In this document: positions 3,883-24,291 of the stretch, in pieces
Position numbering within the stretch: position 1 is the first letter of the stretch
Layout: each line of letters starts with the position of its first letter
Source of the DNA: an uncultured Bacteroidales bacterium
GTDB lineage: Bacteria; Bacteroidota; Bacteroidia; Bacteroidales; UBA12077
Assembly: GCA_964606845.1 (NCBI GenBank)
Contig: CAZSIC010000002.1
Span: 17,609-81,608 of the forward strand
Reading direction: 5' to 3'
DNA: 64,000 nucleotides
Made by a program: the position numbers and the translations under genes
The notes under the pieces: generated by a model
The model's database searches: none
Told to the model about the DNA's origin: nothing
The model's input: the letters and a program-made list of their open reading frames with translations, nothing else

Positions 3883-5751
3883 TTAAGGAAGTATCACTTC
3901 ATCAATTACATGGATAACTCCATTGGTTGCAAGAATATCTGTATCAACAATTGTTGCATCTTCTGATCCTAATCCAAGTGCAGCATCAGTATCAGTAATG
4001 GTTAAGCTACCAAGATTTAGTGTAAAATTGCCGCCTAAGGTTGTTACGGTGCTACTTGATAAGTTTGGTAAATCTGTTGAGAATACTCTGCCTTCTACCA
4101 CGTGATATTTTAGTACTGCTTCAATTACACCTATACCTTGAGCTGTAACCAGTGCATCAAAATCTGCTACACCAGCTAGCGTATAAAGTGATTCAAAAGC
4201 AGCATCTGTTGGTGCAAATACAGTGAAAGGCCCTTCACCTTTCAATACGGTGATAAGATCGGCTGTTGATCCATCTTCTTCAACTGCCGTTAGAGCAGCA
4301 ACCAACTGACCAAATTCAGCTCCTTCTGAAGCTTCAGAAGCTGCTACAGCAATGTCAACAATATCGTCCGAAGCTGGAACCAACGTTCTGTCAATTAAGT
4401 GAACAACACCATTGTCATAATCCAGAGCTTCACCTGAAATTGTTGCTGCAGTAACCTGGGTTAATCCATTTAAAAATACTCCATTATCGTTATTACTTAG
4501 ATAAAAATCGCCACCTAATGAAGTAATAGCTGAACCTGTTGCAGGTAAACCATCACCAAATACTTCACTACCTAAAACGTGGTAGGTTAAAATGGGAGCA
4601 AGATCGTTGGCAGTTAAACCATCTAAACTTGTTATACCAGCAGCTTCAAAAGCATCATTATTTGGTGCAAACAGGGTATAATTAGCTTCACTGTCAATTA
4701 GTGTATTTAACAAATCAGCTGTAACTACTGCTTCAGTTAAAATGGAGAAATCTTTATTAAAATAAGCAGGTTCTACAATGGTATTTACGATACTTAATTC
4801 CAATGAAGGAACTAAAACTGCATCGACAATATGTACGATACCATTTGAAGCTTCTACGTCAGGAGTAGTAACGTTCGCTCCGTTGATAGTAACATTACTG
4901 CCACTTATTTCTACTGTAATTTTATCATCATCACTTAATAGCGTAGCCGCCATCTGACCATCAGTCAAATCTCCTGACATTAAAGCAGCACTTGAAATAA
5001 CGTGATACTTTAGCAGTCTTTCAATTACATTTTCAGGTACATCATCTAAACCCGATTGTCCAATTACTCCTAATAATGCTGAAAAGGCATCGTTTGTTGG
5101 AGCAAATACAGTATAATTACCATCTGAGCTTAAAGCATCTACTAAATCAGGGAACATCGTCAAAGCGTCTACCAAAATACTTAATGAAGGGGTTTCTGAT
5201 GCTATCGTTACTATATCATCTTTTGGTAATACGAAACCTTCTGGAAGCAATACTTCGTCAATAATATGTACCACGCCATTTGAAGCTTCTATATCAGCAT
5301 TGGTTACCATAGCACTGTTATTTAATTTAACAACGTCATCCATAATGCTAACATTGATAGATTTACCCGAAAGTAATGTTGCTACATCACCATTTGAAAG
5401 ATCAGTTGACATCACTTTACCACTTACTACATGGTATTGAAGTACTTCAGCTAAAACATCCGGATTATCTAAAAGTGTTTCTAACACGCCATCTTCTAAA
5501 TTATCAAATGCATCATTTGTTGGTGCAAACACAGTAAAAGGTCCATCACCTTGCAATACAGAAGTTAAATCTGCAGTTGTAATGGCAGTAACCAGAGTGC
5601 TTAAGTCTGATGTTGAAGTCGCTAACGCAACAATATCATTGGTTGGCAACATCATGTCATCATCATCATCGTCATTACACGATGTAAACATCAATCCTGC
5701 TATTAATGCAATAGCTGTGATTGATAAAAATTTTTTGGTAATCGTTTTCAT
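3883..5751 (-). CDS. Lipoprotein with four tandem fasciclin (FAS1) domains
   Basis: The motif T(V/L)FAPTNDAF/TVFAPTDAAF recurs four times, each followed by a YHV...G and NGV(V/I)H(I/L)ID block. The N-terminus has the lipobox LMFTSC. Confidence 0.9.
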   Translation of the reverse strand: MKTITKKFLSITAIALIAGLMFTSCNDDDDDDMMLPTNDIVALATSTSDLSTLVTAITTADLTSVLQGDGPFTVFAPTNDAFDNLEDGVLETLLDNPDVLAEVLQYHVVSGKVMSTDLSNGDVATLLSGKSINVSIMDDVVKLNNSAMVTNADIEASNGVVHIIDEVLLPEGFVLPKDDIVTIASETPSLSILVDALTMFPDLVDALSSDGNYTVFAPTNDAFSALLGVIGQSGLDDVPENVIERLLKYHVISSAALMSGDLTDGQMAATLLSDDDKITVEISGSNVTINGANVTTPDVEASNGIVHIVDAVLVPSLELSIVNTIVEPAYFNKDFSILTEAVVTADLLNTLIDSEANYTLFAPNNDAFEAAGITSLDGLTANDLAPILTYHVLGSEVFGDGLPATGSAITSLGGDFYLSNNDNGVFLNGLTQVTAATISGEALDYDNGVVHLIDRTLVPASDDIVDIAVAASEASEGAEFGQLVAALTAVEEDGSTADLITVLKGEGPFTVFAPTDAAFESLYTLAGVADFDALVTAQGIGVIEAVLKYHVVEGRVFSTDLPNLSSSTVTTLGGNFTLNLGSLTITDTDAALGLGSEDATIVDTDILATNGVIHVIDEVILP

Positions 5752-6178
5752 AACTTAAATTTTTTAGTTTATAATAAATTTTATTGAAATGAAACAGAAG
5801 GTTAATGATAATGTTTAATTAATTTAATTATTTATTTAACATTTAACTGTGTTTATAAATAATAAATATATTTAATTTATTAATATACAAATATTTATAT
5901 AAATACATTATAAATTATGATTTTTTTAATGTTTTACATATTTAATTCTAAACTAAACAAATATTTTTTATGCAGTGATGATATTCATAAAAAAATCATA
6001 ATTCAATAAAAAACTAATTGCGAGGCTTTAGTTATTTGAAATTAATGATAAAAAAACAGGATATGAGAAGGAATAATATTTAATTCCGGTAAATGAAACA
6101 GGCTTTAAAGGGGGCGACAATATTTAATTAAGACGAGATTTCTTTTGGAATACAGATATACCGACATTAAAGTGGGTC

Positions 6179-12984: not shown

Positions 12985-14196
12985 ATGAAAAAATTAGCTC
13001 TACACTGGCAAATATTAATCGCATTTATACTTGCAATAGTTTTTGGCATTTTTTTTAAAGAATATGTAAATTATGTTTCCTGGATGGGCGATATATTCCT
13101 CCGAATGCTCAAAATGATTGTCATTCCTTTGGTTTTAAGCTCTGTAATATCAGGAATTGTTAATATAGGCGGTGATGGAAATTTTGGAAAACTCGGATTA
13201 AAAACCATAGCATATTATTTAACTACAAGTACATTTGCCATTATTGTCGGATTATTGATGGTTAATATTATACAACCCGGAGTTGGCATGGATATTACCT
13301 CCATTGCTATTGAAGAAAAAATAAGTATAGACAGGCCAAGCATGGGTGATATTTTTATTCAAATTGTTCCTGAGAATATTTTTTATGCAATGGCTAACAA
13401 TGATTTTCTGGCAGTAATTTTCTTTGCTATTATAGCAGGTATTTTTATAAGCAAAATTGACAAAAAAAGTAATATCATCCTTGCTGATTTTTTCAATGCC
13501 TTTTTTGAGCTGTTTATGAAAATTACCATGTTTATTATAAAGCTAGCGCCTTATGGAATATTCGGTTTAATTGTAAAAGTAGTAGCTGAACAAAAAGACT
13601 TCGGAAATATGGTTGCCAGTTTGGGAACATTTATGTTAACCGTAATTGGTGGAATTTTAATCCATTCATTGATAACATTACCATTGCTTACTCGTTTTAT
13701 AGGAAAAGCCAAGCCATTCAAACATTTAAGCAATGTAAAAACAACACTTATTACTGCTTTCTCTACAGCATCTTCTGCAGCTGCCCTGCCACTTAACATG
13801 AAAGAAACCAATGAAAAATCCGGAGTTTCTCATAAAATTACAAATTTTACTTTACCTATTGGTACTACCATTAATATGGATGGAACAGCCATTTATATTG
13901 CAGCGGTAGTTATGTTTATTGCACAGGCAAAAGGAGTTGATATGGGTATAAAAGAACAAGTGCTAATATTAATTACAGCCTTAATGTCGAGCATTGGCAC
14001 GGCCGGAGTGCCTATGGCCAGCCTTGTTATTATTACAATTATTTTAGAAGTACTTGGATTACCGCTTGAATTAATGGCTTTAATTCTTCCGGTTGATCGA
14101 ATATTAGATATGTTCAGAACAACTACCAATGTTTGGGGTGATAGTTGTGGTGCAGTTATTATTGCAAAATCGGAAGGAGAATGGCTTAATGTTTAG
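12985..14196 (+). CDS. Dicarboxylate/amino acid:cation symporter (DAACS, GltP-like)
   Basis: 403 aa and polytopic, with SSAAALP and TINMDGTA motifs typical of the family. Confidence 0.88.
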   Translation: MKKLALHWQILIAFILAIVFGIFFKEYVNYVSWMGDIFLRMLKMIVIPLVLSSVISGIVNIGGDGNFGKLGLKTIAYYLTTSTFAIIVGLLMVNIIQPGVGMDITSIAIEEKISIDRPSMGDIFIQIVPENIFYAMANNDFLAVIFFAIIAGIFISKIDKKSNIILADFFNAFFELFMKITMFIIKLAPYGIFGLIVKVVAEQKDFGNMVASLGTFMLTVIGGILIHSLITLPLLTRFIGKAKPFKHLSNVKTTLITAFSTASSAAALPLNMKETNEKSGVSHKITNFTLPIGTTINMDGTAIYIAAVVMFIAQAKGVDMGIKEQVLILITALMSSIGTAGVPMASLVIITIILEVLGLPLELMALILPVDRILDMFRTTTNVWGDSCGAVIIAKSEGEWLNV

Positions 14197-14259
14197 TAAA
14201 AAGAAAGAGGAGTCGCCAGTGATTTTTCGTTAGTTATAAATGAAATTAAACAATATTCC

Positions 14260-14421
14260 AGTGTCGTGTCAATGCTATTGTGTCGGTTAAGTCGCAATAA
14301 TTTTTTCTCAGATCAAAAAAGAAATTCTGCACATAGCCGAAGCTACGTAAAGAATTTATTTTGACGAGCTGAGGAAAAAGAACAAGACTTGGGCTGACTA
14401 AAATAGCGTTGACATGACACT
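14260..14421 (+). repeat. 162-nt long imperfect hairpin (inverted repeat): candidate structured RNA or MITE-like element
   Basis: Hand pairing gives 14260-14279 with 14402-14421 (20 consecutive pairs including 2 G:U) and continues inward through bulges to a TAGC/GCTA stem capped by CGAA at 14338-14341. At least 6 G:U pairs occur on the plus strand. Confidence 0.8.
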
Positions 14422-14614
14422 AGTATTTATATCATCTGTAATTTACTTTTATAAATATTAAGATTGTTATTGTCATGAACTTAAACCTACTGACGAATAC
14501 TTTATTTTCTGATAAATACAATCTTCTTCGCTACTTAGTCTGATATAAATTTTTATATCCTTTGCCAATTATTTTGTGCATATATTATTATCTTAGCCTA
14601 AAACATATTTTAAA

Positions 14615-15262
14615 ATGAAATCCTCAAGATTAAAAATATCTGCTATTGTTTTTACACTTATTCTAATCTGCTGGCCGGTATTTACATTTATTTCATTACC
14701 TTCCGGTGCCAGTTATTCAGCTCAACTTAATTCTATTAACAATACTCCGGTATGGTACATACTAAATTTTATCATTGCCTTTTTAATTGCTCCTTTCCTT
14801 ATTTTTATACTTTACGAACTACACAAAAAAATAACTAACAACCAAAAATATTTAACGACGAAAATCGGTTTTTTTCTTTATATACTATTTTTTTTGATTA
14901 TTAGCATTTCTTATGGATCTCAATTTTTATACTTACCATTTATTATGAATTCTAAACCAGAATCTTATATTTTAAAATGGTATTTTTATAATAATGATTC
15001 GCTTGTAATTTTTATCAATCAGACTGGATATATGATTTGGGGCATAGCCACATTGCTCATCTTTACGCGCTACATTTTCAAAAGCAGTTTAATTTTTTTT
15101 ATCATCAAGATACTTACATTATCAGCTCTGACTCAAATTGTAGCAACGATTGGACTCTATTTTAACCAGCCTAACCTAATTGGTTTGACATTTTACAGTG
15201 GTATTTTAATGCTTCCGGCAGGAATTTTGATTATTATTTATAGCTATTTGCCAAATAAATAA
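14615..15262 (+). CDS. Polytopic membrane protein, unknown function
   Basis: 215 aa with about 6 hydrophobic segments and no diagnostic motif. Confidence 0.6.
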   Translation: MKSSRLKISAIVFTLILICWPVFTFISLPSGASYSAQLNSINNTPVWYILNFIIAFLIAPFLIFILYELHKKITNNQKYLTTKIGFFLYILFFLIISISYGSQFLYLPFIMNSKPESYILKWYFYNNDSLVIFINQTGYMIWGIATLLIFTRYIFKSSLIFFIIKILTLSALTQIVATIGLYFNQPNLIGLTFYSGILMLPAGILIIIYSYLPNK

Positions 15263-24010: not shown

Positions 24011-24291
24011 GCCGGCTCCCAACAGCTATAGCCGACTGCTGGTATTTTAGTCAGCGGCTTTATGCCATGGAAGTCTTTTTATCAGGGTCACCGGCTTCCA
24101 GCCGGTTTATCCTGGAAAAATTCCATATCAGTTAAAACCGGCTAGAAGCCGGTGATCCATTGAAAAAATTACTTATTTTATAAGTTATAGGTACAGCCGA
24201 TTGGTTATAATAGTCAGCGGATGAATTACTAATTGGCAACTAATTATGCTTAATATCATGGTGCCGTTGATTCAAAAGTCATCCGCTGACT
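24011..24291. repeat. Cluster of GC-richer hairpin repeats (REP/BIME-like) between convergent genes
   Basis: Direct repeat AGCCGA(C/T)TG...TAGTCAGCGG at 24030-24059 and 24194-24220. Twin hairpins ACCGGCT-TCC-AGCCGGT (24090-24106) and ACCGGCT-AGA-AGCCGGT (24137-24153). A 13-bp stem joins AGTCAGCGGATGA (24212-24224) and TCATCCGCTGACT (24279-24291). Confidence 0.8.

Follow-up and report, generated by a model that had tools for sequence, protein, structure and literature searches.

Bacterial MITEs are usually pictured as two transposase-binding ends joined by arbitrary filler. Among the described families, RUP of Streptococcus pneumoniae is a 107-bp non-coding repeat with termini like those of an IS630-family IS, and it inserts at TA (PMC2229807). 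The Correia/NEMIS elements of Neisseria are MITEs of 100-155 bp with TA termini, and their long stem-loop transcripts are RNase III substrates that modulate neighbouring mRNAs (PMC2229807). ERIC/IRU is an imperfect palindrome of about 127 bp over its whole length, with TA ends, which is co-transcribed with the genes beside it and influences mRNA stability in an orientation-dependent way (PMC2229807). For the REP/BIME and RAYT systems, G.T pairs in the stems have been read as a hint of an RNA function, and strand-specific recognition of ssDNA has been described (PMC3733652). REPs are 20-40 nt long, carry an unpaired, conserved GTAG/CGTC tag and have neither target duplications nor long terminal inverted repeats (PMC3733652).

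The element described here lies in a window of 64 kb, by which we mean the whole stretch of DNA from an uncultured Bacteroidales bacterium that was analysed. Together with an insertion sequence found at another locus (L016), it follows the same logic as RUP, namely IS630-type termini and TA. It differs from RUP in its phylum, and no sequence similarity appeared in the searches made, RUP not being among the sequences compared directly. We know of no reported RUP core that is common to families with other termini or target-site duplications (TSDs), and of no strand-asymmetric G.U bias in RUP. In Correia/NEMIS, the inverted repeats comprise only the termini of about 24 bp and the centre holds an IHF site and promoter boxes, whereas the group to which the window element belongs has a covarying hairpin over the whole length and a conserved apical stem-loop. 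ERIC/IRU comes closest to a hairpin that spans the whole element and has a preferred strand, but it is one family in one bacterial order, its terminal repeats are only 7 bp long and a parent IS is not known for it; the window group has many terminus families, two TSD types and, for the family of the window element, an identifiable IS630 parent. The features that define REPs are all absent from this group. Plant MITE-derived miRNA-like hairpins have the architecture of a long, AU-rich, near-perfect MITE-type hairpin in common with the window element, but are not homologous to it; a match to plant MIR7996 (34.8 bits, far below the gathering threshold of 119) was rejected as an artefact of this architecture. 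To our knowledge, bacteria have no Dicer pathway.

A reading of the sequence alone had placed a near-perfect hairpin at 14260-14421, in a gap of 418 nt. RNA folding and shuffle z-scores bore out the hairpin, and the spacer between the SDF/gltP-like gene and a 215-aa ORF is indeed 418 nt long (Table 1). With RNA parameters, the region 14240-14440 folded with an MFE of -73.3 kcal/mol on the plus strand (z = -9.46, equalled by 0 of 200 shuffles) and of -62.9 kcal/mol on the minus strand (z = -7.75). For the 162-nt element alone, the RNA MFE was -71.2 (plus) versus -56.3 (minus). The plus-strand fold contains 62 pairs, including an unbroken run of 20 at the hairpin base and six G.U pairs, at exactly the sites listed in the sequence-only reading (14266:14415, 14273:14408, 14285:14395, 14287:14393, 14288:14392 and 14306:14374). 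The CGAA apex loop was likewise found, at 14338-14341, and the expected one to three or so plus-strand A:C mismatches correspond to two A.C-type symmetric-loop mismatches, 14330:14349 and 14333:14346. Four G.U pairs are present in the minus-strand fold of the element, and in the single window copy the G.U asymmetry (6 versus 2-4) is statistically non-significant, significance being reached only in the family-level analysis described below. The element is non-coding, with no ORF of 60 aa or more overlapping the body, and, again as had been claimed, richer in GC than its surroundings (38.1% versus 23.6% for the rest of the spacer). It is also not a standard terminator: a scan for a stem followed by a U-tract gave 0 terminator-like sites in 13900-14900. 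Only the bounds needed correction, to an element of 160 bp, because the flanking target-site duplication, CA on the left and TA on the right, takes in positions 14260 and 14421.

Table 1. Features of the element and its spacer in the window (positions are those of the 64-kb stretch).
Feature	Position	Strand	Basis or remark
SDF/gltP-like gene	12985-14196	+	Pfam SDF, E = 1e-125
215-aa ORF	14615-15262	+	Other gene bounding the spacer
MITE body, GTGTC...GACAC, one end-to-end imperfect hairpin	14261-14420	+	Folds; covariance model; empty site in L151
Left target-site duplication copy, a degenerate TA that now reads CA	14259-14260	.	Comparison with the empty site in L151
Right TA copy of the target-site duplication	14421-14422	.	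Empty site in L151; F1-family copies
Left terminal inverted repeat GTGTCGTGTCAATGCTATTGTGTCG	14261-14285	+	Fits pattern GTGTCRTGTCAAYGCTAT; resembles left end of L016 IS
Right terminal inverted repeat, reverse complement GTGTCATGTCAACGCTATTTTAGTC	14396-14420	-	Fits pattern GTGTCRTGTCAAYGCTAT; terminus of L016 IS
5' T-run and middle stem TTTTTTCTCAG	14301-14311	+	Pairs with 14369-14379 (CTGAGGAAAAA)
Conserved purine-rich internal loop GAACAA, within ...GAAAAAGAACAAG motif	14380-14385	+	Opposite 5' loop GCAATAA (14294-14300)
Apical module: inner stem 14322-14328/14351-14357 around the apex hairpin	14322-14357	+	Compensatory changes, helices 5-7
Conserved apex motif CATAGCC-GA-AGCTACGTAA	14332-14350	+	Stem CATAGC/GCTACG, loop CGAA

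A structured RNA that evolved at this locus, as a UTR element or small RNA gene in the spacer between the gltP-like gene and the 215-aa ORF, would agree with the transcriptional setting, in which both flanking genes read in the plus direction, the favoured strand of the element being their sense strand. It would also agree with a plus-strand fold that is 10-15 kcal/mol better than the minus-strand fold and contains the six G.U pairs. The element proved, however, to be precisely missing from the orthologous spacers of close relatives, so that the RNA element specific to the downstream region of the gltP-like gene, as proposed from the sequence, did not hold up. All four orthologous spacers (L151, L152, L153 and L156) lack it despite conserved synteny, in relatives with SDF proteins 99%, 96%, 95% and 93% identical to that of the window. 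In L151, the relative with 99% identity, the spacer is uninterrupted and contains a single TA, which allows comparison at base resolution: the empty site reads AAACAATATTT-TA-GTATTTA, and the window reads AAACAATATTC-CA-[element]-TA-GTATTTA. The left duplication copy, CA instead of TA, is an imperfect point for a target-site duplication, and, compared with the empty site, the T adjoining it has become C as well. In another assembly, the contig with this locus stops 30 nt into the left arm. The homologues, which have IS630-type termini and TA duplications and are scattered over many unrelated loci in several phyla, also argue against a locus-specific RNA, as does the outcome of Rfam 15, which gave 0 matches in the window at the gathering threshold and none for the elements of 10 sister loci. 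We give this explanation almost no credence.

The terminus of the element was present at 29 genome loci. These include unrelated loci with full-length homologues in Bacteroidales, Arenibacter, Chitinophagales, Ignavibacteriales and Syntrophomonadaceae MAGs; a cultured carrier, with copies of type F1, that of the window element, is Arenibacter sp. P308M17. One MAG has five copies, located at contig ends, where assemblies break. No further copy was found in the 64-kb window, even at 3 mismatches, and BLAST searches of plasmids and phages gave no matches; nine apex-motif matches in viral contigs turned out not to be elements. In the family of the window element (F1), TA was present on both flanks in 7 of 9 independent copies. 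Two of the outcomes that the sequence-only reading had named as refuting it were thus observed: absence from closely related genomes, and numerous copies between short direct duplications (here of TA), which it took as the sign of a MITE with no RNA role. The MITE part of that statement stands; the implied lack of an RNA role is too simple, given the asymmetry of the superfamily.

The L016 insertion sequence, which was found in a MAG of a different genus from the window organism, is flanked by TA and carries HTH_32 and DDE_3 ORFs (NCBIfam transpos_IS630, E = 5.8e-45). An A8 run divides the transposase of this IS into two ORFs, perhaps through a programmed frameshift or because the gene is a pseudogene. 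The first 18 nt of the right arm of the window element are identical (18/18) to the terminus of this IS, TA followed by GTGTCATGTCAACGCTAT, and the left terminal repeat agrees with its left end at about 21-22 of 25 positions, as counted by eye. Since the termini match and TA is duplicated, mobilisation by the IS630 family is suggested, and the mobilising enzyme is most likely an IS630-family transposase. This DDE enzyme would act in trans, integrating the element at TA and duplicating the TA. Matching IS termini and TA integration with duplication are also the marks of IS630-mobilised MITEs such as RUP and Nezha. The properties by which bacterial MITEs are recognised, a non-coding sequence shorter than 300 bp, terminal inverted repeats, a short TSD, dispersed copies and presence/absence polymorphism, were all found.

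Because of the empty orthologous sites, the dispersed copies and the termini matching IS630, the hairpin of the window is a MITE insertion rather than a cis-element conserved with the gltP-like gene; the insertion and the family membership are both shown by these data. We infer its mobility from presence/absence and from the distribution of copies. The insertion is recent and lies 64 nt beyond the end of the SDF (gltP-like) gene. A read-through SDF transcript would carry the long stem-loop at its 3' end, before the next gene, and by analogy Correia/NEMIS is a plausible model for the effect of the window copy on this transcript. Such a stem-loop would be a by-product of the landing site and not the reason for the existence of the element.

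About 160 related elements, with lengths of about 156-164 bp, were assigned to at least 15 terminus families with unrelated arms. A scan with the apex motif matched at least 120 metagenome stretches, and a covariance model identified 161 full-length elements in the collected loci, half of them without the exact apex motif; the metagenome sample was gathered by this motif, and the covariance-model alignment leans to the modelled structure. The window element scored 182.3 bits on the plus strand versus 73.2 on the minus strand. Cross-family alignments with MAFFT and RNAalifold recovered the structure only partly because the arms are not alignable by sequence, and the covariance model was used instead. 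The superfamily is large, belongs to the Bacteroidota and is so far apparently undescribed; we found no Rfam family and no published description for it or for its strand asymmetry. Its elements break short-read assemblies and insert at stop codons.

Common to the families is an apical core, CATAGCC-NN-AGCTACGKAA, with a 5' T-run and a 3' AAAAGA. The apex motif was invariant in 34 representatives from 9 terminus families, and in further families the apex stem covaries (CATACC/GGTACG, GAATAC/GTATTT, CTATGC/GCATAG and AATAGC/GCTATT). This stem keeps a conserved A.C mismatch on the favoured strand, which would be a G.U pair on the other strand. Covariation extended along the whole stem, with 89.5% of cells paired versus 59.7% in shuffled and at most 51% in slid alignments, and double-sided changes were seen in 60 of 62 pairs. 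In the middle stem (helix 3), 12 of 13 pairs had double-sided changes; the T-run and A-run are conserved in sequence between families (T45-47 and A120-122 are nearly invariant) and the remainder covaries. Many compensatory changes were also found in the inner apical stem (alignment columns 73-78 with 107-113).

On both strands, the apex hairpin of many families has an A-run before it and a T-run after it; there is also a 'TTG' ahead of the apex and 'TATTTTTT' about 20 nt further on. This arrangement would suit a MITE-borne terminator, intrinsic and bidirectional, or a Bacteroidota promoter (TTG-N20-TAnnTTT round the apex). In families F9 and F5d/e, however, the A-run and T-run are swapped while the pairing is kept, which indicates that the conserved feature is base-pairing and not a U-tract or a -7 box. 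The simple terminator scan was empty at the window copy, the sequence conservation of the apex far exceeds what a terminator needs, and under either function the asymmetry of the outer arms is left without an explanation. A terminator or promoter role is therefore very improbable as an account of the core.

The families fall into two TSD classes, TA and a 3-bp TWA. The termini vary from family to family, which would imply two or more integration chemistries, one duplicating TA and one duplicating 3-bp TWA; going by TSD type alone, these would correspond to two transposase families. For the TWA families, the search for an autonomous parent was negative. Several candidates were rejected: 'half elements' that might have been core-carrying parents were F2 copies with nested small repeats, L056 was an F2 copy split by an unrelated IS, the L048 pair encloses a thioredoxin-like gene, and the 'orphan terminus' pairs all enclose host genes and no transposases.

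The strand that carries the core motif folded better than its complement in all 34 representatives (RNA parameters, mean -15.4 kcal/mol), and DNA energy parameters gave the same asymmetry (34/34). When the arms alone were considered, the core-motif strand was favoured in 19 of 19 subfamilies (p = 4e-6, with the reservation that these are not all fully independent), and G.U pairs numbered 57 versus 11. Family consensuses favoured it in 10 of 10 cases. The asymmetry is thus a fixed property of the family consensuses, always on the core-motif strand. Substitutions confined to single copies, in contrast, were symmetric, with 52 to G.U versus 43 to A.C (p = 0.41), whereas all variants pooled gave 169 to G.U versus 91 to A.C (p = 1.5e-6). 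The orientation of elements relative to genes, called by an ORF heuristic and not by a gene caller, was weakly biased (39:29 overall; 27:20 in single-element spacers, p = 0.38). Resident copies do not regenerate the asymmetry, and the orientation of host genes has little bearing on it.

These data bear on the possibility that the element is a palindrome at the DNA level only, with a G.U excess that reflects chance, an asymmetric ancestor or a mutation bias such as C-to-T deamination. Transposase binding does demand inverted terminal copies, and the absence of strand bias among singletons means that resident copies are not visibly constrained; the small orientation bias relative to genes and the non-significant asymmetry of the window copy fit as well. 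Yet the arms are unrelated between families, and the strand defined by the core is favoured in every subfamily nonetheless. The interior stems covary strongly although no transposase requires a palindromic interior, and, among double changes, 356 restore Watson-Crick pairs and 128 do not. A mutation bias should mark singletons too, and with the singleton substitutions symmetric, strand-biased mutation was rejected as the cause of the asymmetry. A control family of MITEs with the same left terminus and another interior had weak folds, forming poor hairpins, and no consistent strand preference. Taken together, these observations make a palindrome of DNA alone improbable.

Selection on host mRNAs was rejected as well, the orientation bias being too weak. 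With near-random gene orientation and symmetric private mutations in resident copies, the target of selection appears to be a single-stranded form (RNA or ssDNA) in the propagating lineages. The sequence-only reading had interpreted the G:U versus A:C asymmetry as selection on a plus-strand RNA helix. Selection on a single strand is upheld at the level of the superfamily; its RNA nature is not, as DNA parameters give a like result. Compensatory changes and strand-specific G.U tolerance, both found here, are what a structured RNA should show, and a functional ssDNA hairpin predicts the same signal. The most economical reading is that the single-stranded fold of the core-motif strand would matter for propagation of the element lineage, perhaps as RNA transcribed from some copies, perhaps as ssDNA during mobilisation.

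With its conserved apical motif, the long strand-specific hairpin is reminiscent of the single-strand origins and ssDNA promoters of plasmids. The element might accordingly work as ssDNA, the hairpin of the favoured strand being a substrate or cofactor of mobilisation, a single-strand origin or an ssDNA promoter. Possible routes are the lagging-strand template or an HUH/tyrosine enzyme (compare REP/RAYT and IS200/IS605). The equal asymmetry under DNA parameters suits this proposal, as do its fixation in propagating lineages without maintenance in resident copies, its independence of the direction of host transcription, and a minus-strand apex that reads GTAG-stem-loop. The TA/TWA duplications and the long terminal repeats identical to those of IS630, on the other hand, indicate double-strand DDE transposition, HUH elements make no target duplications, and no Y1/HUH gene was seen beside copies. 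The GTAG tag of REPs is unpaired and conserved (PMC3733652), while here it lies in a stem and varies (GTAC, GTAT, CTAT); kinship with REP/RAYT through the minus-strand GTAG was rejected on these grounds, together with the length of 160 nt and the presence of TSDs. We regard an element working as ssDNA as unlikely.

The account that we consider probable, with good confidence, is that of a MITE with IS630-type ends that belongs to a structured-core superfamily and owes its strand asymmetry to a single-stranded fold in propagation. More tentatively, and with clearly less than even confidence, we suggest a class of structured-core MITEs whose strand-specific hairpin is needed for single-stranded propagation. 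The core would have been combined repeatedly with termini of IS630-type (TA) and IS5/Harbinger-like (TWA) transposases, and the hairpin core, rather than the terminal repeats, would be the evolutionarily persistent unit. As the single-stranded form, one may think of an RNA made by some copies and acting in trans or in cis, or of an ssDNA intermediate that folds back on itself.

For the locus, the result is deflationary: the hairpin is a recent transposon insertion and not a regulator that evolved together with the gltP-like gene, and it should be masked as a repeat. Superfamily elements are relevant to MAG quality and to gene expression at 3' ends in Bacteroidota. In contrast to the usual picture of bacterial MITEs, the filler is here the conserved part, a structured core common to families with different ends and TSDs, with one strand consistently favoured. 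If this is confirmed, a single-stranded stage, RNA or ssDNA, would matter in the life cycle of a DDE-mobilised MITE, and there would be a testable explanation for the long hairpin form of so many bacterial MITEs, ERIC and Correia among them.

Folding of positions 14240-14440 with RNA parameters on both strands confirmed the near-perfect long hairpin that the sequence-only reading had placed at 14260-14421 (MFE -73.3 kcal/mol, z = -9.46 on the plus strand versus -62.9 kcal/mol, z = -7.75 on the minus strand). Folded alone, the 162-nt element reached -71.2 kcal/mol on the plus strand versus -56.3 kcal/mol on the minus strand. The plus-strand fold has 62 pairs and the expected CGAA loop, and its six G.U pairs fall exactly where that reading had listed them. 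About 1-3 A:C mismatches had been claimed for this strand, and two of A.C type were found, in symmetric loops; the minus-strand fold has 4 G.U pairs. The G.U versus A.C count in this single copy is not significant by itself. The element is indeed GC-richer than its surroundings (38.1% versus 23.6% in the rest of the spacer) and not a standard terminator, as a terminator scan detected no canonical one at the element. No Rfam family was found in the window at threshold, and the sole Rfam similarity of the hairpin, to a MITE-like miRNA precursor of plants, scored far below threshold.

Comparison with close orthologues of the adjacent SDF-family gene (99, 96, 95 and 93% protein identity) revealed a conserved gene order of RtcB, ion channel, SDF, 215-aa ORF, 356-aa ORF and DUF169, with the ion channel and DUF169 missing from the 93% relative. 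The spacer between SDF and the 215-aa ORF measures 259, 250, 159 and 186 nt in these relatives, respectively, versus 418 nt in the window. The alignment resolves an empty site to the base in the 99% relative (AAACAATATTT-TA-GTATTTATATC), whereas the site is filled in the window (AAACAATATTC-CA-[GTGTC...GACAC]-TA-GTATTTATATC). It follows that the element inserted here recently, at a TA. An identical SDF protein is encoded on just one other contig, which stops 30 nt into the left arm.

The window contains no second copy. In the genome collection, a degenerate pattern fitting both arms (GTGTCRTGTCAAYGCTAT) matched at 29 loci, several of them full-length homologues of ~160 nt at unrelated loci in Bacteroidales, Arenibacter, Chitinophagales, Ignavibacteriales and Syntrophomonadaceae MAGs. 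Most homologous copies are flanked by cTA...TAg, and in one MAG 5 contigs end inside a copy. These dispersed TA-flanked copies and the empty orthologous site contradict the earlier proposal of a locus-specific RNA element. The element is a MITE whose ends are of IS630 type; by these ends and the TA duplication, the window copy belongs to an already known type of MITE.

A complete, TA-flanked insertion sequence in a Tannerella MAG (L016) has one ORF with HTH_32 and one with DDE_3 (transposase of the IS630 family by NCBIfam, E = 5.8e-45). At its end, TA is followed by GTGTCATGTCAACGCTAT, a terminus identical to the right arm of the window element at 18/18 positions and similar to the left arm over ~25 nt. 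An IS630-family transposase, acting in trans, would mobilise the window element. The L016 transposase is split at an A8 run into an HTH ORF of 157 aa and a DDE_3 ORF of 221 aa, a sign of programmed frameshifting or of a pseudogene.

Coordinates of neighbouring genes and of other features in the window and the comparison loci
Feature	Sequence	Position (nt)	Strand	Remarks
SDF-family symporter gene	window	12985-14196	+	upstream neighbour of element
215-aa ORF	window	14615-15262	+	downstream neighbour of element
Direct repeats	window	~3897-5579		~435-nt period, families D1-D4, 73-87% identity; suggests coding region with tandem repeated domains
Inverted repeat, 33 nt	window	24076-24108 / 24135-24167		82% complementary, GC-rich centre (…CACCGGCTTCCAGCCGG… / …CCGGCTAGAAGCCGGTG…), T-run and A-run flanks; looks like bidirectional intrinsic terminator
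IS630-family IS	L016	1405-2633	minus	complete, TA flanks
F1-family copy	L014	134-228		internally deleted (~95 nt), both termini kept, apical core gone
Rfam Acido-Lenti-1 RNA	L042	6003-6048	+	37.6 versus 37 bits, just at gathering score; contig otherwise Bacteroidota-like
Two inverted F3-family termini	L048	5554-6645		surround thioredoxin-like ORF (5738-6076); may be a composite or just two neighbouring elements
F2-family hairpin element	L056	2567-3998		split by unrelated IS with 400-aa DDE transposase, termini ACAACCACCCTAAAAAAA, ~10-bp duplication CTAAAGAATT

A wider search showed that the window element belongs to a superfamily of covarying hairpins whose core is conserved and whose fold is strand-specific. 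When metagenome contigs were scanned with the 19-nt apex motif CATAKCCNNAGCTACGKAA, at least 120 stretches matched. Among the matches listed, most were hairpin elements of ~160 nt with arms and termini unrelated to those of the window, built on a common architecture (arm, ATTTTT, stem, A-run, stem, apex, complementary stems, ...GAAAAAGAnCAAG, second arm). Run against about 1.1 Mb of comparison sequence, a covariance model based on eight copies of the window element's own family (F1) and the MFE structure of the window element identified 161 full-length elements. The metagenome sample was ascertained by the apex motif, but the covariance model detected as many elements without the exact motif as with it: half of the 161 lack it and belong to further terminus families. 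There the apex stem covaries, from CATAGC/GCTACG to CATACC/GGTACG, GAATAC/GTATTT, CTATGC/GCATAG or AATAGC/GCTATT. In the model-fitted alignment, which leans towards the modelled structure, standard pairs occupy 89.5% of pair cells (59.7% shuffled, at most 51% with slid partners), double-sided changes occur at 60/62 pairs, and the covariation score is 0.58 (0.16 shuffled, at most 0.12 slid). Terminal repeats are palindromic of necessity anyway; the interior helices covary as strongly, and no transposase requires interior pairing.

In some metagenome contigs of ~30% GC (e.g. L135, L068, L042, L103, L144), elements of many different hairpin-MITE families are densely clustered, with several in every 10 kb. 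Numerous copies begin -2 to +5 nt from the stop codon of the upstream gene, as would be expected if the TA or TAA of stop codons served as target.

The families, set apart by their termini, fall into two classes of target-site duplication (TSD). TA on both sides is seen in F1 (7/9), F4-like (7/9), F6, F7, F11 and F15, and the 3-bp TWA in F2 (21/26: TAA 13, TTA 7, TAT 1), F3 (10/15), F5, F10 and F13. Judged by the type of duplication, a second transposase family may be involved. Among the loci examined, we found neither an autonomous IS containing the core nor a parent IS for the TWA families. A MITE family with the F1 left terminus and a different interior folds only weakly (-31 to -41 kcal/mol), which shows that the termini can be separated from the core as modules.

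Some F2 copies sit within the apex of an element from another family, at its TAA, and a nested AT-rich small repeat of ~130 nt lies inside the F2 copies of L035, L038, L061, L076 and L123. The Bacteroidales MAG H2.bin.10 (L002, L020, L022, L023) contains a second MITE family of ~147 bp with the left terminus of the window element, an unrelated core-less interior, a weak fold and no consistent strand preference.

For the analysis of strand asymmetry, orientation was set solely by the strand carrying the core motif, and both strands were then folded. The core-motif strand was more stable in 34/34 representatives, drawn from nine terminus families, with an average difference of -15.4 kcal/mol. 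The outer arms alone, unrelated in sequence between families, favoured it in 19/19 subfamilies, not all of them independent (sign test p = 3.8e-6), and contained 57 G.U pairs on this strand versus 11 on the complement. All ten family consensus sequences show the asymmetry (e.g. G.U 8 versus 1, 6 versus 3, 5 versus 1). The earlier suggestion of selection for folding of one strand therefore generalises, but its assignment to RNA does not follow: DNA energy parameters again favoured the core-motif strand in 34/34 cases, so that thermodynamics cannot tell RNA from ssDNA.

Private substitutions at consensus Watson-Crick pairs were symmetric (52 to G.U, 43 to A.C, p = 0.41), ruling out strand-biased mutation as the source of the bias, whereas all variants pooled were skewed (169 G.U versus 91 A.C, p = 1.5e-6). 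The G.U bias is therefore fixed in propagating lineages and not visibly maintained in resident copies. Double changes restored a Watson-Crick pair 356 times and did not restore it 128 times. Locus-by-locus function in host mRNA was rejected as the cause, because orientation to genes, judged by long-ORF heuristics, is nearly random (39 sense versus 29 antisense in co-directional spacers; 27:20 in one-element spacers, p = 0.38; short spacers alone reach 33:16). Terminator or promoter function of the core was discarded as the main explanation, since in F9 and F5d/e the A-run and T-run bordering the inner stem have exchanged places with the pairing preserved. An A.C mismatch in the apex stem persists on the favoured strand even where the adjacent pair covaries, and looks like a specific recognition feature rather than a matter of simple stability.

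Among known systems, pneumococcal RUP, likened to the window element as a MITE with IS630-type ends, resembles it most in mechanism; ERIC, with its orientation-dependent RNA effects, comes nearest among whole-length hairpins, and Correia among stem-loops processed by RNase III (PMC2229807). A REP/RAYT relationship was rejected, because these are defined by an unpaired conserved GTAG tag and absent TSDs, whereas the superfamily has TSDs and no such tag. A 2024 census reported MITEs as very abundant in Bacteroidota but mentions neither hairpin structure nor IS630 nor a shared core (PMC11602168), and a Cardinium MITE paper concerns an unrelated IS982 derivative. Searches of open-access literature and of Rfam 15 turned up no account of a structured core common to several terminus/TSD classes or of a superfamily-wide strand-specific G.U bias, although one may exist elsewhere.

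We infer that propagating lineages are under selection for the core-motif strand in single-stranded form, which could be an RNA that some copies produce or ssDNA at a fold-back stage. At the window locus, transcription of the SDF gene would continue through the element in sense and give the mRNA a long 3' stem-loop, which may serve as an RNase III substrate or a stabiliser in the manner of Correia and ERIC elements (PMC2229807).
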